This document shows positions 3,806-64,000 of a DNA stretch of 64,000 nt, in pieces. Position numbers and translations under genes: made by a program. Position 1 is the first letter of the stretch; the number at the start of each line of letters is the position of its first letter. The notes beneath the pieces are model-generated. The model was not told the DNA's origin. It ran no database searches and was given only the letters and a program-made list of their open reading frames with translations. Source of the stretch: Candidatus Muiribacterium halophilum. Lineage in GTDB: Bacteria; Muiribacteriota; Muiribacteriia; Muiribacteriales; Muiribacteriaceae. The DNA is taken from contig PKTG01000107.1 of assembly GCA_002869225.1 (NCBI GenBank), forward strand, positions 9,623 through 73,622. The letters are read 5' to 3'.

Positions 3806-5567
3806 AAAAGAGATAATAACTATTATAAAAAGTTTAAAAAAAGATTTAAATCCGAAAAAGGATGTTCTTATTTCTGATCACTTTGAAGATAGTTCTTCTA
3901 AATATTCGATATTCTTACTTGTTGACGATGAAATAAAAAGACTCAGGTCGGAAAAAAAAGAAAATATTATATTTATTCGAAGCGAAGCTATATCTTTAGA
4001 TGACTCCAGAGCCTTGATCTATTTTATAGTGGAGAAATTTCTTAATAAAGGTATAGGTAGTATATTAGAACTTAAAGTAATAAATAATCTGGGAGTGGTA
4101 GTGGCACTTACTGGTAATCAGAGCAAGCTTATATATTCTGAGGAAGAGTTTTGTATTGGAGCATTTGATGATTGTAAGGAAAACTGTCTTTATAGAAAGG
4201 CAAGATATTCAAAAGAGGTCAAAGAAAAATTATCTCAACTGGGTGGTGATGTTTACTCTGTAAGTCTAAACTCCTTTAATATAAATGATAAAAGATTCTT
4301 TTTTGAGACAATAGAGAAGAAGATAGATCTAAAAATACTGGAAAAAGCAGTTTCAAATAAAACAGAGGAAGGGACTTTTTTTGCGCATTTTATCGATGTA
4401 CTTGAAGTGTTTTATATATCAAGATCTAAATCCGATTATATAGAGAAGATAGGAGAAAAACTATCATCTATTTTTAACAGTCCCTATTTTCTGCTTTCAG
4501 ATGGTGATTCTCTATATGAGTTCAGGGATAAACGACTGATTATTAAAAATGAAGCTAATTTACCTAAAAGATTTCAGAATGTGCAGTTTATAACTGATAT
4601 AAAAGATTAAAAATCTTTCTCGGATCTGGAAAGGTACGGACGATACATAATTTACTTTACCGCTTCCTCCTTAAATTCAGAACTAGCGCAAATATTGTTT
4701 GTTACGGATAGATTGGAAGAGGATATATTAAATCTAATAAACCTACTTTCGGGTCAGATATTCCTATGTCTTAATTATTTTGAGAAGGTTGAGAACGAAA
4801 GATTAGACAGTGTTAAACTCTTTCAAAGAGAGAAGATGGCTTCTTTAGGCCAGCTTTATCTTGGAATAACACATGAGATAAACAATCCCAATCCATTTAT
4901 ATCCGGTAACAGTTAACTTATAGAGATGAATATAGAAGATATTAGAGAGATGATAGCAAAAGGTGTTGATAAGAACATGCTATTAAAAAAGATGGATGAT
5001 ATAGATGAATCTCTTAAAGATATAATGAAAGGTTCTGAAAGAATAGATAGTATAGTGCAGAACCTTAAGCTTTTTTCGAGATTCGATTACTCCAATGTCA
5101 GGAAGAATGATATTAAGAGAATAATATCCGAAGCAATAAGAGTATCCCAGTATAGAGCTAAAGATAAAGATCTTTTTGAACTTATATCAAGATCTGGAGA
5201 ATTTAATGTTAAAGTAAATCATGATGAGATGCTACAGGTGTTTGTGAATATTTTTCTGAATTCAATACAATCTATTGAAAAGAAAAAAGAAATGCTTGAA
5301 GGAAGTTTCTTTCAAGGCAGAATACAGGTCGAGATAGAAATATTTGATAAAGAGATATGTATTAAAGTCGAGGATAACGGTGCTGGAATGGATAAGATAA
5401 TGGCTTCCAAGGTGTTTGACCCGTTTTTTACCACAAAGGGAAATGACGGTACCGGTCTTGGTATGAACATAGTCTATAATATTATTGCAAAATATTCAGG
5501 AAGGATAAAAGTTGAGACCGAGCTTGATAGTTTTTTCAGAACTATCATTAATTTGCCGATAGCTTGA
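3795..5567 (+). pseudogene. cytoplasmic sensor histidine kinase; three same-frame segments joined across two in-frame TAA (4608-4610, 4914-4916)
   Basis: ORFs 3795-4610, 4695-4916 and 4926-5567 are all in frame 0, and the 28 codons 4611-4694 are also open. H-box ITHEINNP lies just before the second TAA. HATPase motifs EDNGAGMD and GTGLGM follow it. Confidence 0.75.
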
Positions 5568-12176: not shown

Positions 12177-13018
12177 TGGAAATAAACAAAAGGTATCTTG
12201 AAAGATTACTTGAAACCGCAATAGATGAGGATATAGCATTTTCAGGAGATATTACTTCTGAAAATATCTTTGAACGATCTCATATTTCAAAAGGTAGATT
12301 TATCTCAAAAGAAGAAGGAATATTCTGTGGAGAAGAAATACTAAGATACATATTTAAAAATAAAGTAAAAGATGGCGAGATAGAAATAAAAAAGAAAGAT
12401 GGAGAATATCTTCAAAAAGGTGATATCATTGCCAAAGTCAAAGGTAATACAAAAGATATTCTTTTATTTGAAAGAACATGTTTAAATATTATTTGCCATA
12501 TGTCTGGTATAGCCAACAAGACGATGAGATTAGTTAAAGCTTTGAATAGAGCTGATATAAGAGTGGTTGATACAAGGAAGACCCTTCAAGGATTAAGAGC
12601 ATTACAAAAATATGCTGTTAAGATTGGAGGAGGATACAATCACAGAAGCGGATTGTATGATGCTGTTATGATAAAAGAAAATCATATTAAAGCTGCTGGA
12701 TCAATAAAAGAAGCTGTATAGAAGGTTAGAAGGAACGTATCTCATGTGATAAAGATAGAAGTTGAGACAACTGATCTTAAGGAAGTTCATGAAGCGGTAG
12801 AAGCCGGAGCTGATATAATTATGCTTGATAATATGGAACATGAACAGATGAGTCAGGCCTGTATTATAATCAACAGAAGAGCATTGATTGAGATTAGTGG
12901 TAATATAAGTGATGATAATATAAAGGAAAGAGTAAAAGAACTTCCAGTGGATATTATATCAAGTGGAGCTTTGACACATTCTGTTAAGGTATTTGATATA
13001 TCTTTTTTATTAGATTGA
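12176..13018 (+). pseudogene. nadC: nicotinate-nucleotide pyrophosphorylase (quinolinate phosphoribosyltransferase) with one in-frame TAG (12719-12721)
   Basis: ORFs 12176-12721 and 12746-13018 share a frame. The combined 280 aa is the canonical NadC length. KENHIKAAGSIKEAV-stop-KVRR..IKIEVETTDL..AGADIIMLDNM spans the stop. Confidence 0.85.
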
Positions 13019-16620: not shown

Positions 16621-17616
16621 ATGAAAAGATTTTTTGTAATATACATTATTTTTATATTCATATTCATGGCAATAGCGGATTCTACCGTCCATGATATGTA
16701 TCAGACTGCAGAAGAATATTATAAAGAGGGAATGATATAAAATTCCATTTCTCTACTTTAAAAAGTCATTCTTCAGGACCCTACCTTTATTAGTGCTTAT
16801 TATCTTTTAGGTAAGATTTACAAAGAGATAAATGAGTACGATAAGGCTATGTCATATTTTGAAAAGTGTATTGAGTTAAGACAGGATCTTAGAAATCGCG
16901 AAAAATCACTTGAAGAGAGTGGAATACCAAAGGTCAAGGTAGAGATGAGTGATGTTCTTAAAAAGATTGGAGAAGCTGAAGAGATACTCAGTCAGGGTAT
17001 AAGATTTGTAGAGGAAGGTGATTTTCTGTCTGCTGAGAACAGTTTTAAATATGCGATAGATCTAAACCCTAATGTTGCAGAATATTATTTTAGATTAGCG
17101 GATGTGTATCTTGATAGACAACTCGATGATATGGCTATAAGTACTTTAAAAAAAGGTCTGAGAATAGATACAAAAAATACTGACAGATATATACTACTTG
17201 CATCTTTATATTCAAAAAGCGGAGATGACAGGAAAGCTGTTCATCTTCTAAAGACAGCAGCTACTGATCATTTTAACGATAATCTTAAATTTAGAGATCT
17301 TATAAAGAGGTACTCTGCCAATATTATGGATAGAAGGGATTATACTGTAATAAGAAGAGATGGTAGAGAAGTTATAATAAATGCAGGGTTTAGAGATGGT
17401 ATAAAAAGAGGTATGGAATTCAGGACTCATCTGACTGTTTATAGGGGAGGCACTCCTGTGAAAGATCTAAATACAGGTGAGATACTTGGACAGACTGAAA
17501 GAAAGGTCATAGGAGAGTTGCTAATAACTAAGGTCGAAGAAAAACTCACTTATGGTCAGATAACTATTGAAAAAGAAGATAAGATTAGGATAGGGGATTT
17601 TATTTCAATTGAGTAA
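16621..17616 (+). pseudogene. TPR-repeat protein with N-terminal membrane anchor; two in-frame TAA (16738-16740, 16759-16761)
   Basis: ATG 16621 is in the same frame as ORF 16849-17616. MKRFFVIYIIFIFIFMAIA anchor. The first TPR unit reads YYKEGMI-stop-NSISLL-stop-KVILQDP..AYYLLGKIY and continues into the called ORF. Confidence 0.65.
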
Positions 17617-18055: not shown

Positions 18056-19590
18056 TACTTATATATATATTTACCTTTATGATCTTTTCCTTCTCAATAA
18101 ATAGTATATCAGTTCAGGTAAACGATATTACTTTTAAGGGAAATATTGACGGGGATATAGTATACCTTCCACTTACCGATGTATGTAAAGAATTCGATAT
18201 AAAGTTTGGTTTTTTTCCTGACACAAATATCATAGCTATCAACTTTCAGAATAAGATGATGAGTACCGTCGTGGATCAGAAAGAACTTATAGTAAATAAT
18301 GAGATAAGTGAACTTGAAAATCCACCAATTCTTATCAATTCCGAAGTCTATATGCCTATTGAGTTCTTCTCAAAATATCTGGAGTTGGATATATCATGGA
18401 AACCTGAAGAGATCTCAAAGAGTTCTGTTATAAGTGAACTTGTATTCAGGGAAAGTCCAGATGTTCTTGAAATATTTATTAAAGCCGATAAATCTTTTTC
18501 AAAGAACGAATATTTTGTGATACAGGATAAAAGAGATCTTATAATAAGTTTTCCTAATACTAAGATCGATTTAGAAGGTTTTGAATATCCTCATGATTAT
18601 ATTGAAGATGTAAATTATTTGAACGAAAAGCAGGAGACTGCTCAACTAACTATCAGATTTAAAAACAATCTTGACATTCAGTTGGGTCCTTCTGTAAAGC
18701 CAGCTGGGATGTATATTAGAGTAAATATATCTGATGTTCAGAAAACGCTTCCAGAAAATCGTGATGTATTGGATACTTCTGAGATCATTTCCTATAGAGA
18801 GCCAGGTTCTATTGAAGTATCTGCTTCAGAGATTCCCCTGATCTCAACGACTGAAGTTGCATCAGTGATCAGTTTAGACAGTCAGGAGACATATGAGGTA
18901 GAGGATTCATATATAGAAGAAGTTCCAGATATTGAACTTCAGCAATATACTTTTGTTGAGGAAACCTCTGAAAATATACTTGAGAATAAAGTCATCGTAA
19001 TCGATCCTGGCCATGGTGGTTCGGATTATGGTATTACCAAATTCGGTATATATGAAAAAGATATCGTACTTTCGATAGGAAGAAAACTTTTTGATAAGTT
19101 GTCTGAAGGGGATGCGTCAGTATTTCTGACAAGAAAGGGAAACGAGAATCTTACAGATGAAAAAAGGTCATATGTGGCAAATAGTAATAGGGCACAATTG
19201 TTTTTATCCTTGCATCTTGCTTTTAGCAGAGATGAAAAGATATCAGGATTTTCAATCTATTATTCTCCACAGTCTGAAAATGATCTAAAAGATAAACAGG
19301 ATTCGATGGAAGAACTAAAAAATATAAAAAGATATGATGATAGTATTAAATTTTAAAGACTCGTTAGCAGACACTTCGTGGACGATCTTGGTTTTATAGA
19401 TAGAAATATATTGCAGGCACCTATATCTGTTTTAAGAGATGTAAACTGTCCTTCTATATTACTTGAACTAAATCATTTATCAAATATGGAAATAGCACAG
19501 CTTTTAAAGGAAGATGATATACAGGATAAAATAGCCGATACTTTATATAAGGCTATTGAATCATATTTCATGAGAAAGAGAGCAAGATGA
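18037..19590 (+). pseudogene. N-acetylmuramoyl-L-alanine amidase (AmiC-like, AMIN plus Amidase_3) with one in-frame TAA (19354-19356)
   Basis: ORFs 18037-19356 and 19378-19590 share a frame. VIVIDPGHGGSDYG and ANSNRAQLFLSLHL lie before the stop. APISVLRDVNCPSILLELNHLSN lies after it. Confidence 0.8.
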
Positions 19591-22994: not shown

Positions 22995-24409
22995 TAGCTT
23001 CTAACAGATTACCTATAGTCATTAAAAAAGAAAATGAAAAAGATTTTTCAATGACTCCTGGAAAATGAGGACTTGTTACAGCAATGGCTCCTGTCTTAAG
23101 AGACAGAGGTGGCATCTGGCTCGGATGGCCTGGAATAACTGATGAGGATAATATTAGTGATAAAAAGTTAAAAGAACTTATGGAAAAAGGTATAAAGGAT
23201 AGTGGTTATGATCTGGAACCCATAATCTTTTCTCATGAAGAAGCTGAAAAATATTATGAAGGTTTTTCAAATGAGATAATTTGGCCATTATTTCATGATC
23301 TTCCATCTCTTTGTAATTTCAAAGAGGAATACTGGAATATATATAAGGATGTAAACGAAAGATTTGCCAGTAAATTGACTGAAAAAGCTAAACCCGAGGA
23401 TTTTATATGGGTACATGATTATCATCTGATAAATGTTGCGACAAGATTAAGAAAAAGATCGCTGACAAATAAGATAGGATTTTTTCTGCATATTCCTTTT
23501 CCTCCGCTTGATGTCTTTTTAAAATTACCTTGGAGAAGGGAGATACTTCAGAGCCTTTTAGATTATGACCTGATAGGATTTCAGACACAAAGAGATAAAA
23601 GAAACTTTCTTCAATGTGTTCGTAGAGTGCTTAGATTTAGAGTTCAGGCAAGAGGAACAAAAAACATGGTCTATATAAAAAATCATAACAGAAAGGTCAG
23701 TGTAGCAGCTTTCCCTATTAGTATAGATTATGATAGTTTTGCAGAAGGTGCAGAGTCTGAAAACGTAGCAAAAAGAGCATGGTTTCTGCATGAAAACCTT
23801 CCAAATAGAACTCTGATTCTCGGGATAGATAGATTGGATTATACTAAAGGGATACCTTTTAAATTAAAAGCTTTTAAAAGAGCACTTGAAAAATATCCTG
23901 AACTACATAAAAATATTTCACTGGTTCAGATACTGGTACCTTCAAGAGTGCATATACCTAAATATAGGGAATTAAAGGAGAATATCGAAAAGCTTGTTGG
24001 AGAGATAAACGGAAAATTCACTGAACTTGGTTGGGTACCTGTATATTATATATTTAGATCGATGACAAGAGAAGAACTTTTAGCTTATTACCGGACTTCA
24101 GAGATAGCTTTTGTAACTCCGCTAAAAGATGGAATGAATCTGGTGGTAAAGGAGTTTTGTGCAAGTAATATTGAGGAGACTGGAGTTGTCATACTTTCCG
24201 AGTTTGCTGGTGCTGCTGCACAACTCGGTGAAGATTCTATCCTAGTTAATCCGTATGATGTAGAAAGAACAGCCGATGCTATATACAATGCTTTTACCAG
24301 TGATTATACATATAGAAAAAGAAGGATGAGAAAATTAAGACGATCTATTAAAAAATATGATATCTTCTGGTGGGTAAATGAATTTTTGGAATATGGAAAA
24401 GAAGAATAG
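22973..24409 (+). pseudogene. otsA: alpha,alpha-trehalose-phosphate synthase (GT20) with one in-frame TGA (23066-23068)
   Basis: ATG 22973 (GGAGG RBS) is in the same frame as ORF 23084-24409. MSEGRLIIASNRLP..TPGK-stop-GLVTAMAPVLRDRGGIWLGWPG matches the N-terminal GT20 signature. The total of 478 aa is canonical. Confidence 0.85.
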
Positions 24410-27525: not shown

Positions 27526-28629
27526 ATGATAGCATATGGAGTTGATGAAGTACTGGAAAATCGAAAACATCTAATTAAGGGTGTTCCGATCATTTTAATA
27601 ACCCATTACTATATAAAGGATTCAAATAAGGAGTCTGTTGCTGAGTTGTTTTATCAGGATCCGGAGATTAATCTTTCAAAGATAGTTTGTCCTAAATTTG
27701 GCTTTTTTCTTGATTCTAATACGACTGAAGATTTTGAAGGAATACCAGTTGAGTTTTTTAATATAGAGGATTTTAAAAAATCTCTTAAAAATATCCGCAC
27801 AGTTGTATTTGATCTTCAGGATACAGGAGTTAAGAACTCTCCTATACTTATCATGCTATTTGATATAATGAAAATATTAAATGATGTTGATGTAAACTTT
27901 TTGGTCCTTGATAGACCCAATCCTTTAAACAGTATTTCCTATGCAGGTATTATAGGACCTCTTGACGAGAAAAGACTGCCTCTCAGACATGGTATGACTA
28001 TTGGTGAACTTGCGAGTTATTTTAAATCACAGTTCTTTATAAGTACAAGGTTAAACGTAATTAAGATGATAAATTACGATAGGGAAGAGACTATATACGA
28101 TATAGAAGCTGGCGATAATCCATATTTGCCCGGTATAAGAAACAGAGATAGTCTTTGCCTATATTCTTTTTTACATCTTTTCACTTCAATGAATATCTCT
28201 GTAGGGCTTTGAAGTGATGTTGAATTTCTTGTGTTTGGTGCTCCATGGATCGATCCTGATATAGTATTTGATCAGATCATAATGATGGGTTTTGATGGAT
28301 TTTCTATGGAGACCTGTTCATTTACTCCAAGAGTCGGAATCTATTCTTCCACTGAATGTCACGGTATAAGGTTTAGGATAAATGATCTTTCTATGTTTGA
28401 TCCTATAGAACTCTTCTTAAATATAACAGAGATCTTATACTCATCATTTGGTGAGATAGAATTTCTTATGGATGAAGATGGGATTTATTTAATTGATTCT
28501 TTTTTTTCTGATGAGAGGATCAGAATAACAATAGAGAGATATATTCCAGCAACAAATGCTTATTATAAAGCGATGTCTACAATGGAGAGTTTTATTCCGG
28601 CAAGGCAAGAGGTACTTTTATATTCATGA
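27526..28629 (+). pseudogene. DUF1343 / NamZ-like exo-N-acetylmuramidase with one in-frame TGA (28210-28212)
   Basis: ORFs 27526-28212 and 28231-28629 share a frame. FDLQDTGV and VLDRPNPLN lie before the stop. NISVGL-stop-SDVEFLVFGAPWI spans it. Confidence 0.8.
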
Positions 28630-43851: not shown

Positions 43852-45269
43852 AAGTACTTCTAGTAAATCAACCTGATACAGAGGTAATACTTGCTAATAA
43901 TCCGGAGATACTTGAAGAGGAAAGAGGATATAACCCTCCACTTGGAATACTATATGTAGCCGGTGCTTTAAAGCAGGCTGGAATAGATGTGGAAGTTCTT
44001 GATGCGCAGGTTGAAAGATTGGATTATGAGCAGCTTGAAAATAGAATAAGATAAAACAAACCAGATGCAGTTGGTATGACTCTAATGACATTTACTATAT
44101 TTGATGTCATAAAGACAGCAAAAGTCGTTAGAAAGATCGACAAGAATATAAAAATAGTCCTTGGTGGTCCACATGTATTTATTTATCCTGAAGAGACGCT
44201 TTTACAGGATTGGGTTGATATTATACAGATAGGCGAAGGAGAGAAAAATACTCCTGAGCTTTTTAAAAATATTAAAGATCTAGAAAAACTGAAAACAATT
44301 CATGGTGTAGGAATAAAAAATGAGGATGGTACATTTCAGATAAATCCTCCTGATGAAGCTATAAAGGATCTTGATGATCTTCCATTCCCGGCAAGAGAAC
44401 TTACACCTATTCAAAAATATTCATCTGTTATAGCTAAAAGAAATCCCATAACGACTATGTTTACAAGTAGAGGCTGTCCTTATAAATGTCTTTTCTGCAA
44501 TCGACCGCATCTTGGAAAGACATTCAGAGCCCGTAGTGCTGAGAATGTAATAGAAGAGTTTAAAGTGTGTTTTGATCTTGGAATAAGAGAGTTTTTAATA
44601 TACGATGATACGTTCACAATTAACCGAGAAAGGGTTGTTGATTTCTGTGAACTTATGAAAAAGACTGGACTTAACACAAAAGTTGGTTTTGATATTAGAG
44701 CAAGAGTCAATACAGTTGATAGAGAACTTCTTATAATGCTTAAAGAAGCTGGATGTGAAAGAATACATTACGGTGTAGAGTCTGGTACTGAAAAGATATT
44801 AAAAGTCCTTAGAAAAGGTATTACACTTAATCAGGCAAGAGAAGTCTTTAAGATAACCAAAGAGGTTGGGATATCAACACTTGCTTATTTTATGATAGGT
44901 TCTCCGACTGAGACAGAAGAAGATGTTGAGAAGACCATTGATTTTGCTCTTGAACTTGATCCTGATTTTGTACATGTTACAATAACTAGTCCATTTCCTG
45001 ATACTCCATTATATGCAATGGCGCTTGAAGAAAATGTAATAAAAAGGGATGTTTGGAGAGAGTTTGCTAAAAACCCAACAAAAGATTTTGTAGCACCGCA
45101 TTGGAATAGAGAACTTTCGGATGAGACTTTGCATAGACTGATTAAAAAAGCTTATAAAAAATTCTATATGAGACCTGGTTATATCATAAGAAGACTTCTT
45201 GACTTGAGATCATTTTCAGAGTTTATGAGAAAAGCCAAAGCAGGTATAAAGGTGTTCCTGTTAAAGTAA
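43848..45269 (+). pseudogene. B12-binding-domain radical SAM enzyme with one in-frame TAA (44052-44054)
   Basis: ATG 43848 and ORF 44076-45269 share a frame. ..ENRIR-stop-NKPDAVGMT..VLGGPH is the B12-binding fold. CPYKCLFC is the radical SAM cluster. Confidence 0.8.
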
Positions 45270-46984: not shown

Positions 46985-47063
46985 AAAAAGTAATTAGGGG
47001 GCAGGTTCCAGGGAAAAGGGATGGACTTGTTTAATCCTACCAATTGATGTAGAATCTTAAATT

Positions 47064-48005: not shown

Positions 48006-48020
48006 ACAACAAAAAATAAA

Positions 48021-48052
48021 AAAAGGCTATCCATTTGGATAGCCTTTTTTTT
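48021..48052. terminator. bidirectional terminator
   Basis: AAAAGGCTATCC-ATTT-GGATAGCCTTTT hairpin followed by a T-run. Confidence 0.85.
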
Positions 48053-48061
48053 CTTGTTCTT

Positions 48062-50596: not shown

Positions 50597-50658
50597 TGTA
50601 TTCTCCCTTTTTATTGTTTTTTCTAAATAAAGACTTATTTGTTATATAGCGTTCAATT

Positions 50659-52014: not shown

Positions 52015-52085
52015 AGCCTCTCCATTATAAAAGGTGAAAAATATAATTAGATGTTATAACAAAATAGACATATATGCAAGGTAAT

Positions 52086-52114
52086 TTGACTATAAATGGA
52101 ATGGTTTGTAATAT
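52086..52114 (+). promoter_or_regulatory. candidate sigma-70 promoter TTGACT-17-TAATAT for metG
   Basis: Read directly, 43 nt upstream of ATG 52157. Confidence 0.5.
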
Positions 52115-52156
52115 GTAAAAAATATAAAATGTAAGTAGATAATCGGGAGGATTTTA

Positions 52157-54061
52157 ATGGAAAAAAGACCTTTTTATATTACAACTGCGATAGATTATGT
52201 TAATTCGGTACCTCATATTGGACATGCTCTGGAAAAAATAGGTGCTGATGTCATCGCCAGATACAAAAGATTAGACGGATTTGATGTCCGATTTACAATA
52301 GGCACTGATGAACATGGAAGTAAGATAGAAAGAGAAGCTCAAAAACAAGGTATTACACCTAATGAACTTGTTGATAAAAATGCCAAAGCTTTTAAAGAGG
52401 CATGGGAAAGACTAAATATAAAATACGATGATTTTATAAGGACAACTGAACAAAGACATGAAGATGTCGTAAAAGCGATGTTCTCTAAGATCTTTGATAA
52501 TGGCTATATATATAAATCAGCTTATAGTGGTCTTTATTGTGTGGGTTGCGAGACCTTTTTAAAGGAAAAGGATCTTGTTGATGGGAAATGTCCAAATCAC
52601 GGTACCGTTCCTGAAAAGATGGAAGAGGAGAATTATTTCTTTGCATTATCGAAATTTGAAGAACCGCTGAAGAAGATGTACGAAGAATTTCCAGATAAGA
52701 TGGTGCCGGAGTTTAGGAAAAATGAGATATTAAACATATTAGAAGGTGGTTTAGAAGACGTATCTGTATCAAGAGGTTCTTTAAATTGGGGTGTTAGATT
52801 ACCTAATGACGAGGAACACGTTGTCTGGGTGTGGTTTGATGCCCTTATAAATTACATATCTTCTATTAAATATTCCACCAATCAGGAGTTTTTTGAAAAA
52901 TACTGGGAAAATTCACTTCATATTATTGGAAAAGATATAACCAGACTTCATTGTATCATATGGCCTGCAATGCTTATGGCTGCAGATATACCAGTCTTTA
53001 CAAAAGTACTTGCTCATGGTTTTGTCAATATGAAAGGTGAGAAGATGTCTAAATCTCTTGGAAACGTACTTGACCCTATGGATATAGCTGATAAATACGG
53101 AGCTGATCCGTTAAGATACTATATGATGAGTGAAGTAGGCATGATCAGAGATGGAGATTTTTCATGGGAGCTTTTTATAAAGAGGTATAACTCCGATCTT
53201 GCAAATGATCTTGGTAATCTTCTACACAGGACAAAAAATATGGTTAAGAAATATCTTGGTGGAGAACTTGATTGTAAGGATTGTTCATCTGATAAAAAGA
53301 TAATTGAAAATACAAAGATAAAGACGGATGAATATATTGATTCAATGAATGATTATGATATAGCGACAGCTACATCCAAAGCTATAGATATTGTAAAGTA
53401 TGCAAACTGGTACATTGATAATTCTGCGCCTTGGACAAGTTTCAAGGAAGGAAACCTCGCTCAGGTAAATAATATACTTTATAATGTACTTGAATCTCTT
53501 CGAATAGCTACATTATTACTTTATCCGATAATACCTCAGACAAGTGAAAAAATATTTGATGAGATGGGAATAGTTGATAAACCAGAGGAGCTTGAACTAA
53601 ATAAAGCAAAAGCTTGGGGTGGATATTCTTCTAAAAAGACTCTTGTTGTTGGAAAACCTATTTTCCCTAGAATAGAGATTAAAAAAGAAGAGGAAAATAA
53701 GACCACAGATACGAAAAAAGAGAATATAAAAGATGATAATCTGATCGAGTTTTCTGATTTTGAAAAAGTGCAGATGAAAGTAGCTGAGATAATAGAAGCT
53801 AAAAAACATCCCAAAGCAGATAGGTTGCTTTTAGTAAAGGTAAAAGTAGGTCAGGAGGAAAGACAGGTGGTTGCCGGTATAGCTGATTATTACAAACCTG
53901 AAGAGTTATCTGGAAAAAGAGTCGCTATGGTGTGTAATCTTAAGCCGGTCAAACTCAGAGGAGAACTTTCAGAAGGCATGCTTTTAGCTGTAAAAGATAA
54001 AAAAGAACTTTCACTTGTAACCTTTGACAGGGAAGTAAGACCGGGCAGAAAATTATCCTGA
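52157..54061 (+). CDS. metG: methionine--tRNA ligase with C-terminal tRNA-binding domain
   Basis: HIGH motif (PHIGHALE), KMSKS, zinc knuckle CVGCE..CPNHG, and a C-terminal EMAPII/Trbp111-like domain. Confidence 0.95.
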   Translation: MEKRPFYITTAIDYVNSVPHIGHALEKIGADVIARYKRLDGFDVRFTIGTDEHGSKIEREAQKQGITPNELVDKNAKAFKEAWERLNIKYDDFIRTTEQRHEDVVKAMFSKIFDNGYIYKSAYSGLYCVGCETFLKEKDLVDGKCPNHGTVPEKMEEENYFFALSKFEEPLKKMYEEFPDKMVPEFRKNEILNILEGGLEDVSVSRGSLNWGVRLPNDEEHVVWVWFDALINYISSIKYSTNQEFFEKYWENSLHIIGKDITRLHCIIWPAMLMAADIPVFTKVLAHGFVNMKGEKMSKSLGNVLDPMDIADKYGADPLRYYMMSEVGMIRDGDFSWELFIKRYNSDLANDLGNLLHRTKNMVKKYLGGELDCKDCSSDKKIIENTKIKTDEYIDSMNDYDIATATSKAIDIVKYANWYIDNSAPWTSFKEGNLAQVNNILYNVLESLRIATLLLYPIIPQTSEKIFDEMGIVDKPEELELNKAKAWGGYSSKKTLVVGKPIFPRIEIKKEEENKTTDTKKENIKDDNLIEFSDFEKVQMKVAEIIEAKKHPKADRLLLVKVKVGQEERQVVAGIADYYKPEELSGKRVAMVCNLKPVKLRGELSEGMLLAVKDKKELSLVTFDREVRPGRKLS

Positions 54062-54168
54062 AAAAATAGCTTTATCAGGAATAAATAAGTGGTACTAAAA
54101 AAAATCACTTGAAATAAAGATTAATGTTATTATAATTATAATATACAATCATAATATGGAGGGGTGGT

Positions 54169-54528
54169 ATGGTACAACTTGAAAATGTAAAGGTGGAAAG
54201 TCTGGTTGAAGCAAACAGAAACTTTAAGCTTCTAGTCAATGAACTTTTGGAGCAACCGGATATCTTCCTATCTCAGCAGGAAAGATGGACAATGCTTCTA
54301 AGACTTAGAGATCGACTAAAGGATTCAAACACTACAAATGAACATGTCTCTAAATTTAATCAATTTATTGTAGACAATGTGGATCTATTTGCGTCTCTTC
54401 CTTCACACAAGGAAAGACCACCGTTTTACTGGTGGAATCATCTTGATAAAGTGAAAGATGGTGAGATGAATGTTTTTCTTAATAAAGCTTTTATTGAGTT
54501 TAATGGAGTGGGTTATAGCGTAGAATAA
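54169..54528 (+). CDS. hypothetical protein (119 aa)
   Basis: GGAGGGG RBS. A strong terminator lies downstream. No recognised motif. Confidence 0.45.
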   Translation: MVQLENVKVESLVEANRNFKLLVNELLEQPDIFLSQQERWTMLLRLRDRLKDSNTTNEHVSKFNQFIVDNVDLFASLPSHKERPPFYWWNHLDKVKDGEMNVFLNKAFIEFNGVGYSVE

Positions 54529-54563
54529 AAAAGAATTTAAATTTTATGATCCTTCGGGATCTG

Positions 54564-54612
54564 ATGACAAAAAGACATCAACCTTAACGGGAGATGTCTT
54601 TTTGTCATTTTA
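54564..54612 (+). terminator. rho-independent terminator with a 16-bp stem
   Basis: ATGACAAAAAGACATC (54564-54579) pairs with GATGTCTTTTTGTCAT (54593-54608), then TTT. Confidence 0.8.
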
Positions 54613-54637
54613 TCGGTTAGAGGTAAAAAAAAACTTT

Positions 54638-54666
54638 TTGAAATAATACTGTTTTTTTTTTATAAT
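54638..54666 (+). promoter_or_regulatory. near-consensus sigma-70 promoter TTGAAA-17-TATAAT upstream of fliE
   Basis: Read directly, about 75 nt upstream of the fliE start. Confidence 0.55.
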
Positions 54667-54742
54667 CATTCCCATAAGAATGCGGTTCTTTAGATAGTAT
54701 CAGGCCCTAAATAAAAAAATAAAAAAATGGGGGCATCCGGTT

Positions 54743-55060
54743 ATGATGGAGAGGGTGAGTCCGGATATTTTATCCGGTAATTCAATTGATAGATCAACAA
54801 AGAATAAACCTGCAAGTCAAGCGTATAGAAGAGATATGGTGCAGGATTTCAAAACTTTGTTTTCTGACAGTATAAAAAAGACAGTAGGTCTTCAGAAGAA
54901 TGCTGAAAATATGACTCAGAAGATGGTGGCAGGTGATGTAGAAGATATACATCAGGTCATGATCGCTGCAGAAAAAGCAAAGATCGCTTTCCGATTCACG
55001 ATGGAAGTCAAAAACAAAATAATGTCAGCATATCAGGAACTGCAGAGAATGCAGATATGA
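54743..55060 (+). CDS. fliE: flagellar hook-basal body complex protein FliE
   Basis: Size, a C-terminal ..VRNKxxxAYQEIMRMQ-like motif (VKNKIMSAYQELQRMQI), and position before fliF. Confidence 0.85.
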   Translation: MMERVSPDILSGNSIDRSTKNKPASQAYRRDMVQDFKTLFSDSIKKTVGLQKNAENMTQKMVAGDVEDIHQVMIAAEKAKIAFRFTMEVKNKIMSAYQELQRMQI

Positions 55061-55079
55061 TTCTTGAGAGGGTTAATAA

Positions 55080-56636
55080 ATGAATTACAAACAATTTTTG
55101 GATAATATAAAAACGAGTTTTCATAATCTGAGGAAACCACAGCAGTATCTTCTTATAGGTATTGTAGTCTGTGTTATGTTAGCTATGACTGTGATGCTTT
55201 TCTGGGGCGGGAAGACCGAATGGGTTGTTCTTTTTCCTGATCTTAATCCTAAAGAGGCATCAAGGATTGTTAATGAGCTAAAGAACAAACAATTTGAATA
55301 TATCACTGAAACATCTGGAACAATAAAGGTCCCTGCACGAAAAAAAAGTGAGATAATGCTATCGCTTGCTGGTTCAGATGTGCTTCCTGATAGAAATGTA
55401 TCCTGGGAAAAACTCTTTTCCAATACCTCTATTCTCGGGCAGACAAAACAAAGGGAAAGAATAGATTATATTAGAGGTATGCAGGGTGAACTTGAATATA
55501 CGATAAATAGAATAGACCAGGTAAAATCTTCAAGAGTGCATATAAATATTCCAGCTGAAAAGCTTTTTAAAGAAGATGAACTTGATCCTACAGCATCGGT
55601 TCTTTTAAAGCTTACTCCTTTTGAAGAACTCAACGAGGAAAACATTAGAGCTATACAAAATATGGTTGCTTATTCTGTTGAAGGCTTGCTTCCTGAAAAT
55701 GTTAAAGTAACTGATACTTCTGGAAAAATACTTTCTGATGAAGTGGATTATGCTAAAGATGATGCAAGTAAGACCATGACTGTCTTGCAGATACAGAAGG
55801 AATACGAAAAAGACCTTTCTGATAAAGCGAGGAAAATGCTTGAGAAGATAATGGGGTCTGAAAATGCCAGAGTAGAAGTGGCTGTGGAATTTGATTTTGA
55901 TAAGATCGAGACTACTATCAAAAAATACTCTCCTCCAATACCTGGTGAAGATGGCGGAATAATAAGATCGACTGAACAGGAATCTGAAAAATACGAAGGA
56001 ACCGGAAGATTTCCAGGAGGAGTACCTGGTACTGATTCTAATGTTCCTGGCTATAAGGAAATTGAGGGTGATAGCTCAAAATATAACAGAGAAAAAGTAA
56101 TAAATAACTTTGAGATAAATACTGAAGATAAACATCTTATCAAAAAGCCAGGTACGGTAAAAAGATTGACGATAGCAGTGTTTCTTAACGATAAGACTAA
56201 ACTTACGGATGACCAGAAAAAAGGTTTGGAGGAAGGTGTTAAGAATGCTGTGGGATTTAATACGCAACGTGGAGATAAGATATCCCTTATGCAGATACAC
56301 TTTGATAATGAATGGTTTGAAAAGATGCTTAGGGAGATGGAAAAAAGAGAACGTTTGAAAATCATAATTATGATCTCGTCTATAAGTGGTATTCTTCTGA
56401 TAATAATAGCTATACTCGTTATAAGATGGTATAGAAACTACATAGAAGCTAAAAGAAGAAAAAGCATGGAACAGGAAGAGATAAGGCAGGTCGTGGAGAT
56501 CGAAGAGGAATTTGAACCAATACTTTCTATAGAAGAACAGGAAAAACGTGAGATGCATGATAAGATCAGGAAAAGTGCTCAGGCCAATCCTGAGGAGTTT
56601 GCAAAACTTTTAAAAGCATGGATGATGGAGGAGTAG
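55080..56636 (+). CDS. fliF: flagellar M-ring protein FliF
   Basis: 518 aa. N-terminal TM, YscJ/FliF domain, second TM near residue 430. Gene order. Confidence 0.9.
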   Translation: MNYKQFLDNIKTSFHNLRKPQQYLLIGIVVCVMLAMTVMLFWGGKTEWVVLFPDLNPKEASRIVNELKNKQFEYITETSGTIKVPARKKSEIMLSLAGSDVLPDRNVSWEKLFSNTSILGQTKQRERIDYIRGMQGELEYTINRIDQVKSSRVHINIPAEKLFKEDELDPTASVLLKLTPFEELNEENIRAIQNMVAYSVEGLLPENVKVTDTSGKILSDEVDYAKDDASKTMTVLQIQKEYEKDLSDKARKMLEKIMGSENARVEVAVEFDFDKIETTIKKYSPPIPGEDGGIIRSTEQESEKYEGTGRFPGGVPGTDSNVPGYKEIEGDSSKYNREKVINNFEINTEDKHLIKKPGTVKRLTIAVFLNDKTKLTDDQKKGLEEGVKNAVGFNTQRGDKISLMQIHFDNEWFEKMLREMEKRERLKIIIMISSISGILLIIIAILVIRWYRNYIEAKRRKSMEQEEIRQVVEIEEEFEPILSIEEQEKREMHDKIRKSAQANPEEFAKLLKAWMMEE

Positions 56637-56639
56637 TAT

Positions 56640-57653
56640 ATGCCTAAGACTAAACTAGAACTAACTGGAAGACAGAAGGTCGCTATACTACTTATTTTCC
56701 TCGGACCTGAGATATCAGCTCATATATTCAAAGAGTTCTCTGAAGAGGAAATAGAACTTCTAACACTTGAGATCGCAAAGATGCAAAAAGTAGATCCAGA
56801 TGTAAGAGATTCTGTCCTTGATGAATTTAAGCAGCTTCTTGATGCTAGTGAATTTATCAGTATGGGTGGTATCGGTTATGCAAGAGAGCTTCTTGAAAAG
56901 ACACTTGGCTCTGAAAAAGCAAGTGAGATACTTGGTAAACTTACCGCAACGTTTCAGGTCAGACCTTTTGATGTTGTAAGGACACTTGACCCAAGTCAGC
57001 TTCTGAATTTCATACAGGGAGAACATCCTCAGGCAATTGCTTTGATCTTATCTTTTCTATCTGCTGAAAAATCAGCATATATACTCTCACAGTTAAGCCA
57101 GGAAGTACAGGCTGATGTTGCAAGAAGGGTAGCAAAGATGGAATCTACATCACCTGAAGTTGTTAGAGAGATGGAAAGAATACTCGAAAAGAAATTATCA
57201 AGTGTTCTTTCAGAGGATTATACATCTGTTGGTGGTATAGATGCTATAGTTGAAGTGCTTAGTAAAGTGGATAGAGGTACAGAGAAAAGTATTATCGAGA
57301 CACTTGAGATTCAAGACCCTGAACTTGCTGAAGAGATCAAGAAAAGGATGTTCGTATTTGAAGATGTTATTCATATTGATGATAGAGGTATTCAGAGAAT
57401 TCTCAGAGAAGTGGATACAAAAGATTTATCGGTTGCGCTTAAAGGTAGTACTGAAGAAGTCATGGAAAAATTCACCAAGAACATGTCAAAGAGAGCTGCT
57501 GCTATGCTTGAAGAAGATATGGAATTCATGGGACCTGTTCGTGTCAAAGATGTTGAAGAATCTCAGCAGAAAGTTGTTAATATCATAAGAAGTCTTGAAG
57601 AACAGGGTGAGATCGTGATATCAAGAGGTGGTGAAGAGGAAATTATCGCATAA
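56640..57653 (+). CDS. fliG: flagellar motor switch protein FliG
   Basis: GRQKVAILLIFLGPE start, a MFVFEDV motif, and C-terminal charged-ridge helices. Confidence 0.9.
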   Translation: MPKTKLELTGRQKVAILLIFLGPEISAHIFKEFSEEEIELLTLEIAKMQKVDPDVRDSVLDEFKQLLDASEFISMGGIGYARELLEKTLGSEKASEILGKLTATFQVRPFDVVRTLDPSQLLNFIQGEHPQAIALILSFLSAEKSAYILSQLSQEVQADVARRVAKMESTSPEVVREMERILEKKLSSVLSEDYTSVGGIDAIVEVLSKVDRGTEKSIIETLEIQDPELAEEIKKRMFVFEDVIHIDDRGIQRILREVDTKDLSVALKGSTEEVMEKFTKNMSKRAAAMLEEDMEFMGPVRVKDVEESQQKVVNIIRSLEEQGEIVISRGGEEEIIA

Positions 57654-58489
57654 TGCCTGTATTTAGAATAAAAAAAGGACAAGATAATAAAAAAAAGATC
57701 ACTATTGGTCAGCAGGGTATTCTTCGTGAAGATGAATTTAAAGAAGAAAAAAATGAACTTGATGATCTTATAAGAAAAAAGAATTCTATTATATCTGAGA
57801 TAAACTCTCTTAAGCATGAATCGGAAGGTATTATAAGCGATGCAAGAGACCAGGCTGATAGAATAAATGAACAATCTAAAGTTCAGAAAACAGAGGCTGA
57901 GAATATTCTAAGTGAGGCAAAGGAACAGGCTGAAAAAATACTAGTTAAGGCCAAAGAGGAAGCTGAAAAAGAAAAAGAAAAAGGTTATTCCGAGGGATTC
58001 GATCAGGGTTATACAAAAGGTGCCAAAGAAGGAAACGAATCCGCTATAAAAAGTATAAGAGAGGAATACCAAAGTATATTAAAAGAATCTGAAAATGTAT
58101 TGAATCAGGTTATTTCGAAAAAACAGGAGATAATCAAAAAAGCTGATGAAGAGATACTAAGAATAGTTTTAAAAGTCGCCAGGAAAGTAATAAGCGGAGA
58201 ACTCAGAATAAATAAGGAAATAGTATACAACAATCTGAAAGAAGCTCTGAAAAGACTTACAGATAGAGAAAATGTCATCATTCATATCAACAAGAAGGAC
58301 CTTCCAATTGTAGAATCTCATCGAGATGAATTTTTCTCAGAGATCAGAGGTCTTAAAAACTTCAAGATAGTTGAAGAAAACTTTCTTAATCCCGGTGATT
58401 GTATTGTAGAGACACAGTTTGGATTTATTGATGCTGTGATAGATTCTCAATTTGAAGAACTGGAAAGAATATTGCTTGAAGAGGAGTAG
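57653..58489 (+). CDS. fliH: flagellar assembly protein FliH
   Basis: Glu/Lys-rich coiled coil plus a C-terminal FliH domain. Sits between fliG and fliI. Confidence 0.75.
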   Translation: MPVFRIKKGQDNKKKITIGQQGILREDEFKEEKNELDDLIRKKNSIISEINSLKHESEGIISDARDQADRINEQSKVQKTEAENILSEAKEQAEKILVKAKEEAEKEKEKGYSEGFDQGYTKGAKEGNESAIKSIREEYQSILKESENVLNQVISKKQEIIKKADEEILRIVLKVARKVISGELRINKEIVYNNLKEALKRLTDRENVIIHINKKDLPIVESHRDEFFSEIRGLKNFKIVEENFLNPGDCIVETQFGFIDAVIDSQFEELERILLEEE

Positions 58490-58492
58490 ATT

Positions 58493-59800
58493 TTGGATTT
58501 TGAACATCTCGAGGAGAAGATAGATTCAATCGATACATTGAAGGTAAATGGGAAAGTGACCCATGTAATAGGTCTTTTGATTGAATCTATGGGACCTTCA
58601 GCAAGAATAGGAGAGCTCTGTTATATATACCCGAGAGGTTCAAAGGAACCTATTTACTCTGAGATTGTTGGATTTAAAGAAAATAAAGTGCTTCTTATGC
58701 CTTTCTCCGAGGTGCATAACATTGCTCCCGGATGTGAAGTAAGAGCAAGCGGTCATACAATGAAGGTGCCAGTTGGCAAAGCTCTTCTTGGAAGAGTTAT
58801 CGATGGACTTGGAAGACCCCTTGACGGAAAAGGACCTATAAGACCGGAAAAATATTGTGAGGTATATAATGAACCTCCAAATCCTCTTTCAAGACCAAGA
58901 ATAGATAAAAAACTCGAGCTTGGAGTCAAAGCTTTAGATGGAATGCTCTCCGTTGGTAGAGGACAAAGAATTGGAATATTTGCAGGTTCAGGAGTTGGTA
59001 AATCAACACTTATGGGAATGATAGCCAGAAATACTGAAGCTGATATAAACGTTTTTGCATTAGTTGGAGAGCGTGGTAGAGAGGTAAGAGAATTTATAGA
59101 AAGAGATCTTGGTGAAGAAGGTCTGAAAAGGTCTGTAGTGATATGTGCAACAAGTGACCAACCAGCTCTTATAAGACTAAAAGGAGCCTTTGTAGCTACA
59201 GCAGTAGCAGAATATTTTAGGGATCTAGGTAAAGATGTGATTCTTATGATGGATTCTGTTACTAGATTTGCGATGGCTCAGAGAGAGGTTGGACTTACAG
59301 TTGGGGAACCACCTGCAACGAGAGGATATACACCGTCTGTTTTTGCGATTCTTCCTAAATTACTTGAAAGAAGTGGAAGATCTGAAAAAGGAAGTATAAC
59401 AGGAATATATACAGTGCTTGTAGAAGGTTCAGATATGGATGAACCTGTTGCAGATGCTGTGAGAGGTATTTTAGACGGTCATATTGTGTTAAGACGTGAA
59501 CTTGTCATGCAGAACCATTATCCTGCTATAGATATTCTTGAATCTGTATCGAGACTTATGCCTGAGATAATTGAAAAAGAACATCTTTCCACTGCAAATA
59601 GGTTAAGGAGTACTTATTCTACTTACAAAGATACTGAAGATCTAATAAACATCGGTGCTTATGTAAGTGGTTCAAATCCACAGGTGGATTATTCTATTAG
59701 GAAAATAGATGAGATAAAGGATTTTCTTACTCAGGGAGTATATGAAAAATTCTCTTTTGAAGATACAGTTGATATGCTTAAGGATATTTTTAAAGGATGA
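58493..59800 (+). CDS. fliI: flagellum-specific ATP synthase FliI
   Basis: Walker A GSGVGKST. Walker B ILMMDSVTRFA. F1-ATPase-like fold length. Confidence 0.95.
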   Translation: MDFEHLEEKIDSIDTLKVNGKVTHVIGLLIESMGPSARIGELCYIYPRGSKEPIYSEIVGFKENKVLLMPFSEVHNIAPGCEVRASGHTMKVPVGKALLGRVIDGLGRPLDGKGPIRPEKYCEVYNEPPNPLSRPRIDKKLELGVKALDGMLSVGRGQRIGIFAGSGVGKSTLMGMIARNTEADINVFALVGERGREVREFIERDLGEEGLKRSVVICATSDQPALIRLKGAFVATAVAEYFRDLGKDVILMMDSVTRFAMAQREVGLTVGEPPATRGYTPSVFAILPKLLERSGRSEKGSITGIYTVLVEGSDMDEPVADAVRGILDGHIVLRRELVMQNHYPAIDILESVSRLMPEIIEKEHLSTANRLRSTYSTYKDTEDLINIGAYVSGSNPQVDYSIRKIDEIKDFLTQGVYEKFSFEDTVDMLKDIFKG

Positions 59801-59808
59801 AGGTTTAG

Positions 59809-60258
59809 ATGGCAAAATTCAAATATAAGTTTGAAAGACTTTTAAATATAAAAGAGATCGAAGAAAAAAAAGAATATTCAGAACTTGTTAGGATAAGAGA
59901 GGCTATAAAGATCAAGATAGGTGAAAAAGAAGAGGTAAATAAAAAAGTTATAGAGCTTGAAAATAACATTGAGAAGTTAGAAGTATTCTCGGTTGACCAG
60001 ATGAAATATTACAATTCAAGATTTGTAGAGCTTGATAATGAAATAGAGAAAATACAAAAAAATATTGAAAAGCTGCAGGACAATGAGAAGGTACAGAACG
60101 AAAAAGTTATAGAGATAAGTAAGAAAAAAAAGATCCTGGAAAAGTTAAAGGAAAAACATAGATTAGCTTTTAATAAGGAAGAGGAACGTAAATTGAATAA
60201 AGTGCTTGATGAACTCGGTACAAGAGGTTTTATTAGGAAGGGAAGGGGGAGTCTATGA
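59809..60258 (+). CDS. fliJ: flagellar export chaperone FliJ
   Basis: 149-aa coiled coil beginning FKYKFERLLNIKE. Position after fliI. Confidence 0.7.
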   Translation: MAKFKYKFERLLNIKEIEEKKEYSELVRIREAIKIKIGEKEEVNKKVIELENNIEKLEVFSVDQMKYYNSRFVELDNEIEKIQKNIEKLQDNEKVQNEKVIEISKKKKILEKLKEKHRLAFNKEEERKLNKVLDELGTRGFIRKGRGSL

Positions 60259-60551
60259 TAGAGAATATAATGAAAGTTAAAAATAGAATAAAGGATATTA
60301 AAAGTGATATAAACAATATTCATAAGATAAAGACCGAAGATTTTAAAAAAGAGCTGGAAAAGACTAAAGAGACAAAAAAGACTAAAGAAGTTGAAAAAGA
60401 GAGTGTAGAGACTAAGCTCAAAAAGATGGTTGACGATAATCAACTTGATAGTATTCTTGATAATAGCTCAATTAAAGATATGAAGAGAGGGGAGATCATT
60501 AATAAAAACAAACTGGATTTTTATAAGATGATCTCTGAAAAACTTTTTTAA
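60255..60551 (+). CDS. hypothetical Lys-rich protein in the flagellar operon
   Basis: Stop/start overlap with fliJ. No motif recognised. Confidence 0.4.
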   Translation: MIENIMKVKNRIKDIKSDINNIHKIKTEDFKKELEKTKETKKTKEVEKESVETKLKKMVDDNQLDSILDNSSIKDMKRGEIINKNKLDFYKMISEKLF

Positions 60552-60561
60552 GGGGTAGATC

Positions 60562-61275
60562 ATGCCTGAAGAAGAATTAGAACAACAACAAAAACCAAAA
60601 AGAAAGGCTGGATTTTTTCAAAACCTTTTAGCTTTATTATTATTTGTATTTTTTATTATATCTTTGTCTGCATTGGTAGTACTAATGGATTTCATCGGTG
60701 TAATAAATTTTAGAAGAAAACTTCCACCAAAAATAAGAGAAAATATGTATGTACAGGAATATATAAAAAAAGCCAACCTTTTAGATATGAGTGAAGAGGA
60801 AAGGCTCAAAGTTATGATAGAAAGTCAGAATAAGACCTATGAGGAGCAACAGGATCAACTGAAAAAACTCGAACATAATATTGAAGAAAAATTAAAAGCT
60901 ATGTCTGATTATGAAAAGCAATACGCTTCAAAAAAGAAGGAACTTGATGAAGCGGATAACAAGCTTGAAGATATGAAAAAAGAGATGCAGGAACTTGAAA
61001 AACAAAAGAAGCAGTATCAGGATGATATAAGAAGTGCACAGCTTGACGATCTTACAAAACAGGAAAAGTTAAAACAACTTGCGGTAATTTATGAAAAGAT
61101 GGAGCCTGAAGCAGCAGGATTGACCTTTAATGATATGGATGATGATCTTGCTATAGATATTCTGATGACTATGAAAGAGTCAAAAGCTGCTGAGATAATG
61201 AACAATATGAATGCGGAAAAAGTAGTCAAGATCGCAGAAAAATTAAAATCTAAAGGAATATGGCGGAATAAATGA
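60562..61275 (+). CDS. MgtE_N/MotE-like flagellar operon protein (YlxF-like)
   Basis: N-terminal TM, coiled coil, and a C-terminal ..MEPEAAGLTFNDMDDDLAIDILMTMKESKAAEIMNNM pattern. Confidence 0.6.
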   Translation: MPEEELEQQQKPKRKAGFFQNLLALLLFVFFIISLSALVVLMDFIGVINFRRKLPPKIRENMYVQEYIKKANLLDMSEEERLKVMIESQNKTYEEQQDQLKKLEHNIEEKLKAMSDYEKQYASKKKELDEADNKLEDMKKEMQELEKQKKQYQDDIRSAQLDDLTKQEKLKQLAVIYEKMEPEAAGLTFNDMDDDLAIDILMTMKESKAAEIMNNMNAEKVVKIAEKLKSKGIWRNK

Positions 61276-62060
61276 TGAATGATGTTATATTATTTGTATC
61301 AGGAATTATTCAGGGACTTACAGAGTTTTTACCGGTATCAAGTTCAGGTCATCTGGTTGTGTTTCAGACACTTTTTTCTTTTAAAGCACCGAAGGTAGCT
61401 ATTGAACTCATACTTCATTCAGCGACACTGCTTAGTGTGTTTTATCTTTTTAAGAAAAGGATATGGAGTATTATAAGATCGATGTTGGCTTTCAAAAAGG
61501 ATGATGATTTTAGAATGGGTATGAATATAATAATCGGAAACATACCAACTGCTATAATTGGATTTACTTTTAAAGATTTCTTTGCAAGCCTTTTTAATTC
61601 AGGAAGTTTCCCGGTAGCAATAGCACTTTTGTTTACAGGTTCTATGCTTCTTTTCACAGAAAAGATAAAAAAAGGGGAAAAGGATATCAATATAGTAACA
61701 TCAATTATAATAGGAATTGCTCAAGGACTTGCTATTATTCCTGGGATATCTAGATCAGGATCTACTATATTTATTGCATTAGCAAGAGGTGTTAAACCTG
61801 AGAAAGCGTTTGAATATTCCTTCCTTTTATCGATACCCGCAATAATGGGAGCTACAATACTTGAACTTAAGGATATCGATCTTTCTATGATCCACCCCGT
61901 TAAAATAATACCAGCCTTCCTGGCAGCTTTCTTTTCAGGAATATTTGCTTTAAAACTTTTGAAAAACTCTATCAGACAAGGAAAATTATATTTATTTGGT
62001 GTTTATTGTATAGTTATAGCGGTTGCTCTGATAATTTATACGAGGTTTCTAAATGCTTGA
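61272..62060 (+). CDS. uppP: undecaprenyl-diphosphate phosphatase
   Basis: GLTEFLPVSSSGHL and PGISRSGSTI motifs. 8-TM profile. Confidence 0.9.
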   Translation: MMNDVILFVSGIIQGLTEFLPVSSSGHLVVFQTLFSFKAPKVAIELILHSATLLSVFYLFKKRIWSIIRSMLAFKKDDDFRMGMNIIIGNIPTAIIGFTFKDFFASLFNSGSFPVAIALLFTGSMLLFTEKIKKGEKDINIVTSIIIGIAQGLAIIPGISRSGSTIFIALARGVKPEKAFEYSFLLSIPAIMGATILELKDIDLSMIHPVKIIPAFLAAFFSGIFALKLLKNSIRQGKLYLFGVYCIVIAVALIIYTRFLNA

Positions 62061-64000
62061 TAAAAGACATAAAAAACAGGTGGCTGGGGTCTTATTCTGT
62101 GGGGTTTCTATATTACTTATATTTGCTTTTTTTTCAAGTGATTCTGGTCTGTTTGGTAATCTTGTAGAACATCTGAAAAGATTTACTGGTACTGGAGTAT
62201 TACTTGCTGCCTATTTTTTCTGGATAACAGGAGTTTCTTTTTTTTATAAAGAAAAGGATGAGAATAAAGATTTTATGCTGGATCTACTTGCGTGGCTTCT
62301 ATTCACGTGTTGTTTTCTTATAATAACCGGTAAAATTGACAAAGGCGGGAATATAGGTTCTTTTGTATATCAATCTTTTGTATATGTTTTTGGAAATACA
62401 GGAACGATCATCTTAGCATATCTTTTGACTTTAGTTTCTCTGTTGATAACATTTAGGATCGATCTGGTAAAAGTCTTTTTAAAGATAAACACATATATCA
62501 AAAGTGAAAGATTAAAAGATGTATTAAAAAGATTTTTAGTAAAACAAAAAAATAAGGAAAACAGTTTAAAAGAAGAGAATATATCCACAGATAGTTTAGC
62601 TCAAACACATGTGTTTGATGTAAGAAAGACAATTGAAAAAGAAGAAGATGTCAATAATAAAAAATCGGAAACAAAATCAATTGAAGAGAATAAGGTTGAA
62701 GAAAAACCAAAACAGGAAAAATCAGAGAAAAATGAAAATAAATCCGATAAAAAAAGAAAAGAAAATATTAAAAAATCAAAAGATCAGGAAGATAACAGTT
62801 CAGATATTTCTGAAGAGATAAAAGAGAAAAAAGGATTAGAAAAGGAATCTGAGACAGAAGAGTTTGTGCTTCCACCGGTAGAACTATTGGATGATATAGA
62901 AGTTAAACAGACTGTTTCTGAGGATGAACTTCAAATAAAGGGAGAAAAACTCCTTAGTACATTGTCATCTTTTAAGATACAGGCAGAGATAATAGCAACC
63001 ACCATAGGACCATCAGTTACACGATTTGAACTCAGGTTGGCTGCGGGAATCAAAGTCTCTAAATTACTTGGTTTATCAAATGATATAGGTGTTACCCTTG
63101 CTACAAAAAATATTAGGATCGAAGCTCCTATACCAGGAAAATCAGCTATTGGTATTGAGATACCAAATGAAAATCCTATGTTAGTCCCATTCAGACAGGT
63201 AATAGATAAAGTCAAAAAATCCGATCATTCACTTAGAATGGGTCTAGGTAAGAATATAAACGGTAAAGAGGTAATATAGAATCTTGGAAAGATGCCGCAT
63301 CTTCTTATTGCAGGATCAACCGGTTCAGGTAAGAGTGTATGTGTAAATACCATCATAGCTTCAATGCTTTTTAATGCTTATCCCGATGATCTTAAGTTTA
63401 TTATGGTAGATCCTAAGATGGTTGAGTTAAGTGTATACAATGGTATACCACATCTTCTTATACCAGTTGTGACAGATCCAAAGAAAGCTGCCGCAGCTCT
63501 TGGTTGGGCAGTTGAAGAGATGGAAAGAAGATACTCTATGCTTGCTGATTATAAAGTGAAAAAACTGGAGGAGTTTAACGAAAAGATGCAGGGGCTAGCC
63601 GAAGAATATCCTTCGGATAAGGATAAATATGAAAAACTTCCTTATATTGTAATAATAATTGATGAACTTGCTGATCTTATGGTTGTTGCAAGAAATGAAG
63701 TCGAGGAATCTATCATGAGAATAGCTCAGAAGGCAAGAGCTGTTGGAATACATCTTATTATCGCAACTCAGAGACCTTCTGTAAATGTTATAACCGGTGT
63801 TATAAAAGCTAATCTGCCATCGAGAATTTCCTTCGCCGTACAATCTCAGACCGATTCAAGGACGATATTGGATCAGAAAGGTGCTGAGAGTCTTATTGGA
63901 AAAGGGGATATGCTTTTCTGGCCAATAGGTCAAAACGCACCGATGAGGATGCATGGTGCATTCGTCTCAAACGAAGAGGTTGAAAGACTTGTAAGTTACT
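62053..64000 (+). pseudogene. ftsK: DNA translocase FtsK (3' end outside the window) with one in-frame TAG (63277-63279)
   Basis: N-terminal TM helices, Lys/Glu-rich linker, alpha domain. ..[34 protein letters not shown] continues in the same frame through Walker A and the [11 protein letters not shown]alker B. Confidence 0.85.

Follow-up and report, generated by a model that had tools for sequence, protein, structure and literature searches.

The in-frame TAG that interrupts ftsK in the deposited metagenome-assembled genome (MAG) of Candidatus Muiribacterium halophilum is very probably a sequence artefact of this deposit. The miscall of one base, A in place of C, would have turned a serine codon, TCG, into the stop, and the ftsK of the organism would be intact and unexceptional, a DNA translocase gene present in one copy; the error would belong to a genome-wide, assembly-private class of G>T/C>A substitutions that occur at about one per 2 kb and break genes at random. 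The MAG (148 contigs, 2.93 Mb, 32.8% G+C, 89% complete) originates from a bioreactor metagenome, and the stretch of DNA that was analysed, referred to as the window, comprises 64,000 nucleotides of its contig C27. The comparison data were the Logan contigs of two 2017 sequencing runs (X1 and X2), which stem from separate samples of a single "bioreactor metagenome" study.

According to the ORF listing and the translation, the TAG at window positions 63277-63279 is in frame with the open reading frame that starts at ATG 62053 (see Table 1 for the coordinates of all features); it constitutes codon 409 of an ftsK of 755 codons (stop site included). The protein sequence upstream of the stop ends with ..GLGKNINGKEVI, and eleven codons separate the TAG from the first glycine of the P-loop (GSTGSGKS begins 12 codons past the TAG), a trivial difference from the nine codons that had been counted to the Walker A motif in the first-pass annotation of this DNA. 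The same annotation had described the frame as open to the window end through the Walker B region and the RISFAV motif downstream of it in the ftsK frame; indeed, it continues for approximately 320 nt past the end, up to C27:73942 (window-equivalent position 64320). When the stop was replaced by X, the Pfam search of the ftsK product revealed FtsK_alpha (PF17854) at residues 273-372 (101 bits), FtsK_SpoIIIE (PF01580) at residues 386-577 (218 bits versus a cut-off of 24) and FtsK_gamma (PF09397) at residues 687-746 (85 bits); the match to FtsK_4TM was weak (20.2 bits, cut-off 23.1), with hydrophobic segments visible at residues 10-140. As the motor-domain match spans the X at residue 409, a single gene has been cut in two, in agreement with the initial view that the TAG interrupts ftsK ahead of the Walker A motif of the motor. 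The domains follow the same order as in the FtsK/SpoIIIE proteins E. coli FtsK and B. subtilis SpoIIIE/SftA: a putative N-terminal membrane segment precedes a low-complexity linker, the alpha domain, a RecA-like motor that contains Walker A and B, and gamma, the KOPS-reading winged-helix domain. The sole difference from these proteins is the in-frame TAG of the deposit, which is absent from the run assemblies.

In each of the two runs the locus is covered by one 30-kb contig (99.9% identity; word depth of 14.7 and 21.8, respectively), and at position 63278 both contigs contain a C instead of the A of the MAG, which results in the serine codon. No alternative run contig with an A at this position was present down to a likeness threshold of 90%, and the 31-mers across the A allele, of which three words were sampled, matched no run in the index search. 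The run evidence is made up of assembled contigs, which drop minor variants, so that the A allele could persist at low frequency in both samples; it could instead dominate in the MAG's own source sample(s).

The comparison with related genomes was in line with an uninterrupted gene. Among the 40 relatives searched, 37 yielded an ftsK match and none of these 37 contained an internal stop; the motor domain is 74-77% identical to that of the uninterrupted ftsK of three same-family genomes. At the position of the TAG, these three relatives possess Phe, Gly and Gly; since the site is variable, a serine at this position is unremarkable. At the second MAG-private base of ftsK (position 63954), the glutamine of the runs also occurs in each of the three same-family relatives (R[IL]QGAFVSN), and the runs thus carry the ancestral allele. 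A second ftsK/spoIIIE paralogue, for which a search had been recommended, was not found in the 2.93-Mb, 89% complete genome (no further FtsK/SpoIIIE match); the question is moot because the sequencing runs contain an intact gene.

The altered base in ftsK is one of many. MAG and runs were compared over 100 kb (window positions 1-40000 and 44001-64000, and 20 kb each of the contigs C14 and C138), in which the identity among the MAG, run X1 and run X2 was 99.9%. Rearrangements were absent, and the sole indel, of 1 bp, lies at C138:64675, where both runs contain one additional A compared with the MAG. At 61 single bases on the three contigs the MAG stood alone against both runs, and 51 of these sites belonged to the C>A/G>T class, i.e. 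a C or G of the runs is replaced by A or T in the MAG (binomial p ~3e-30 versus a uniform spectrum); A-for-C and T-for-G changes were balanced within this class. The G was followed by a 3' purine at 48 of the 51 class sites, versus 59% expected from composition (p = 2.6e-8). Guanine oxidation is known to prefer a G with a purine on its 3' side. The density of about one G>T/C>A change per 2 kb corresponds to 5e-4 per base, which is high for pure read error at normal coverage. The class sites within ORFs comprised 7 nonsense, 19 missense and 5 synonymous changes; the neutral expectation, obtained by introducing all possible C>A/G>T changes into the long ORFs of this genome, amounted to 13.4% nonsense, 78% missense and 8% synonymous (class versus neutral, chi-square p = 0.07). 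In consequence of this proximity to the neutral expectation, the coding effects of the class are indistinguishable from those of unselected change.

The sites at which a single run deviated presented a different picture (Fisher p = 1.6e-4 for the synonymous fraction and p = 6e-8 for the transition fraction, MAG-private versus run-private). Within the window, 59 single-run-private sites were counted, 33 of them transitions; the coding ones were divided into 35 synonymous, 17 missense and 1 nonsense change, the last being located in a repeat. These variants are ordinary strain microdiversity under purifying selection. Where polymorphism looked natural, the allele of the MAG was almost invariably that of one run or the other; the MAG is therefore to be regarded as a consensus of the same population, not as a separate lineage. 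For approximately 8 sites that fall into the C>A/G>T class, the A or T was common to the MAG and one run, which indicates that reads do contain some variants of this kind. The two runs differed from each other at ~0.06-0.09% of sites (window, C14 and C138), mostly by synonymous transitions; accordingly, the bioreactor population contains two or more haplotypes that are closely related.

Table 1. Coordinates of ftsK, its motifs and the MAG-private changes within the window
Feature	Position in window	Strand	Basis
Sensor histidine kinase gene, MAG-private TAA (runs GAA)	4608..4610	+	Pfam HisKA/HATPase_c
Same histidine kinase gene, second MAG-private TAA (runs GAA)	4914..4916	+	Pfam HisKA/HATPase_c
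nadC, MAG-private TAG (runs GAG)	12719..12721	+	QRPTase_C (112-276) spans stop
TPR-like gene, MAG-private TAA (runs G at 16738)	16738..16740	+	
TPR-like gene, MAG-private TAA (runs GAA), 7 codons after the 16738 stop	16759..16761	+	
N-acetylmuramoyl-L-alanine amidase gene, MAG-private TAA (runs TCA)	19354..19356	+	Amidase_3 (320-508) spans stop
446-codon frame, MAG-private TGA near its start (runs GGA)	23066..23068	+	
NamZ-like gene, MAG-private TGA (runs GGA)	28210..28212	+	NamZ_C (212-366) spans stop
B12-binding radical-SAM gene, MAG-private TAA (runs TCA)	44052..44054	+	B12-binding domain (27-138) spans stop
ftsK (DNA translocase)	62053..64000, continues past window	+	ORF, translation, Pfam, relatives
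In-frame TAG of ftsK; middle base 63278 is A in MAG, C in both runs (TCG, Ser)	63277..63279	+	
Walker A / P-loop GSTGSGKS of ftsK (pattern GxxGxGKS/T)	63313..63336	+	direct sequence reading
Walker B region of ftsK	63652..63681	+	direct sequence reading
Second MAG-private base of the G>T class in ftsK: MAG CAT (His), runs CAG (Gln)	63954	+	

The six-frame check identified 10 in-frame stops in the window that are private to the MAG and correspond to sense codons in both runs (see Table 1); together with about 5 more on C14 and C138, the total is ~15 MAG-private in-frame stops per 100 kb. Pfam domains extend across the MAG-private stops in the histidine kinase gene as well. The same check detected no run allele that breaks a real gene, the sole converse case being situated in an antisense frame. 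As the stops of the MAG are sense codons in both runs, the polarity of the changes is fixed by function, and the run alleles are the original ones. An Nth-like gene (endonuclease III family) at C126:5579-6145 also contains an in-frame TGA in the MAG, probably a further error of the G>T/C>A class. An estimate of broken genes across the genome, based on the pairs of long ORFs in the same frame, sorted according to the stop that divides them and compared with neighbours in the other two frames, proved to be non-discriminating and was discarded, because overlapping starts inflate the count for the other frames.

The first-pass annotation had left the choice between read-through and a sequence artefact; the artefact half of this proposal is upheld by the TCG codon in both runs and by the private G>T/C>A class on three contigs. 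With regard to its source, the G-then-purine signature would point to oxidised guanine (8-oxoG) in the DNA or in the library from which the assembly was made; the miscalls may have entered the consensus through reads that were damaged or of low quality where effective coverage was low, or through a processing step. We infer the technical cause, i.e. the entry of damaged or low-coverage reads into the consensus, from this pattern of substitutions. Oxidative damage reportedly generates G>T/C>A artefacts in sheared Illumina libraries (Costello et al. 2013, Nucleic Acids Res), and the MAG-private class resembles such Costello-type 8-oxoG artefacts in being almost purely G>T/C>A, strand-balanced, enriched in G followed by a purine and free of a selection signature; the CCG>CAG context, which is reported to mark the shearing artefact, is, however, not dominant here. 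A further difference concerns allele frequency: 8-oxoG library artefacts normally stay at a low allele fraction, whereas the errors described here got into the assembly consensus. Their presence at consensus level implies that effective coverage was very low, that the DNA was damaged or that some processing step intervened.

Alternatively, the TAG might be a real nonsense allele, and the MAG would then represent a genuine clone (a hypermutator of the G:C>T:A type, or a sub-lineage under oxidative stress) unlike the majority haplotypes of the runs, whose ftsK product would be restricted to the membrane, linker and alpha portions. E. coli tolerates such a truncation of FtsK, of which only the N-terminal domain is essential. 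We consider a clone of this kind unlikely, although several observations would suit it: 8-oxoG that is formed in vivo in the absence of MutY/MutM also causes G:C>T:A changes with a preference for a 3' purine; the genome search of the MAG revealed neither MutY above cut-off nor Fpg; a few A/T alleles of the class are common to the MAG and one run; and near-neutral spectra, as observed for the MAG-private class, may accumulate in long-term mutator lineages. However, MutY is missing from the three same-family relatives too and its absence is therefore not a lesion specific to one clone; for this reason, loss of MutY/Fpg was rejected as a clone-specific cause. The resemblance to the mutator spectra of the GO system (MutY/MutM), with G:C>T:A likewise dominant and MutY and Fpg undetected, thus ends where the absence of MutY is lineage-typical and the natural variation of the population consists mainly of transitions that are mostly synonymous; the latter observation implies that the G>T spectrum is specific to the assembly and not to the organism. 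The burden of broken genes speaks against the clone as well: ~15 stops per 100 kb extrapolate to ~400 broken genes in 2.9 Mb, among them nadC, the cell-wall amidase and the only ftsK, and the nonsense changes are not depleted. Such an unselected nonsense load is implausible for an abundant, viable clone, and the MAG has the appearance of a consensus of the same population instead of a separate lineage. More improbable still is the specific scenario in which a real clone without GO repair went through a burst of guanine oxidation, acquired ~1500 G:C>T:A changes including several hundred nonsense mutations, lost the FtsK motor and was nevertheless abundant enough in the bioreactor to be assembled.

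Irrespective of the origin of the ftsK stop, the repair gene content of these genomes deserves mention. In the MAG and the three same-family genomes no match to MutY exceeded the family cut-off, and only Nth-like proteins (~70-79 bits) were retrieved; Fpg gave no match in the MAG. GO (8-oxoG) repair may be absent from this Muiribacteriota family, and its absence might be related to the low G+C content (32.8%).

In contrast to the reading as a nonsense allele, decoding of the UAG by programmed read-through or recoding (suppressor tRNA, pyrrolysine or reassigned TAG) would yield a full-length FtsK; it is essentially excluded, and with it the other half of the initial proposal falls. The open frame on either side of the TAG, the variable residue position and the status of the interrupted gene as the only ftsK of the genome would suit recoding, and an in-frame TAG in a conserved single-copy gene is indeed what pyrrolysine systems and TAG-reassigned codes have in common with the present case. 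Yet the components and the genome-wide codon usage of such systems are lacking: none of the 39 tRNAs detected by ARAGORN in the whole MAG (89% complete) has a CUA, UCA or UUA anticodon; PylS was not found in the genome (best TIGR02367 match 27 bits versus a cut-off of 178); RF1 (prfA) is uninterrupted (545 bits versus a cut-off of 423); TAG is the terminator of 336 among 2363 long stop-to-stop frames; and an open continuation past the stop is no commoner for TAG than for TAA. TAG is a normal stop in the Muiribacterium genome. Moreover, the runs contain TCG at the ftsK codon, and the assembly-private stops include TAA and TGA besides TAG, so that no single recoding explains them. ARAGORN reported no tmRNA gene in the genome, which may reflect its 89% completeness.

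A naturally split ftsK, with an N-terminal membrane/alpha protein and a motor protein that is re-initiated at ATG 63292, can be dismissed with near certainty: the ATG is situated 12 nt (five codons) past the stop and the cut lies close to the alpha/beta domain boundary, but a Shine-Dalgarno-like motif at usable spacing is missing upstream of this ATG (GGAAAG abuts it, AAGAGG is more than 20 nt upstream), a split gene exists in no relative and the frame is uninterrupted in the runs.

With the TAG attributed to an artefact of the deposit, there is no biological finding at this locus; the sequenced population possesses an intact ftsK, and the result is of practical value only. The genus Muiribacterium was described from a metagenome by Barnum et al. 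2018, as cited in PMC10408702. The assembly is a species representative within Muiribacteriota, a candidate phylum with sparse sampling, and may be among the reference genomes of this phylum. Extrapolated to the complete assembly, the error load amounts to ~1500 errors and ~400 broken reading frames, which are inherited by the gene calls and proteins derived from it, including those in clustered protein databases. Pseudogenes, split genes, read-through and odd substitutions in this assembly should be checked against public reads before they are interpreted.

Two further sites in the window became apparent in the comparison with the runs. Between positions 45270 and 45620 the long contigs of both runs break; the stretch is represented by many short contigs with loose ends toward several different sequences and a summed depth of up to 248-441 versus ~15-22 for the genome, and is a multi-copy repeat or a stretch common to other community members. 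A segment of about 40 nt (positions 30172-30215), at which joints and loose ends occur in both runs, matches several spots on the same and on other run contigs and represents a small dispersed repeat.
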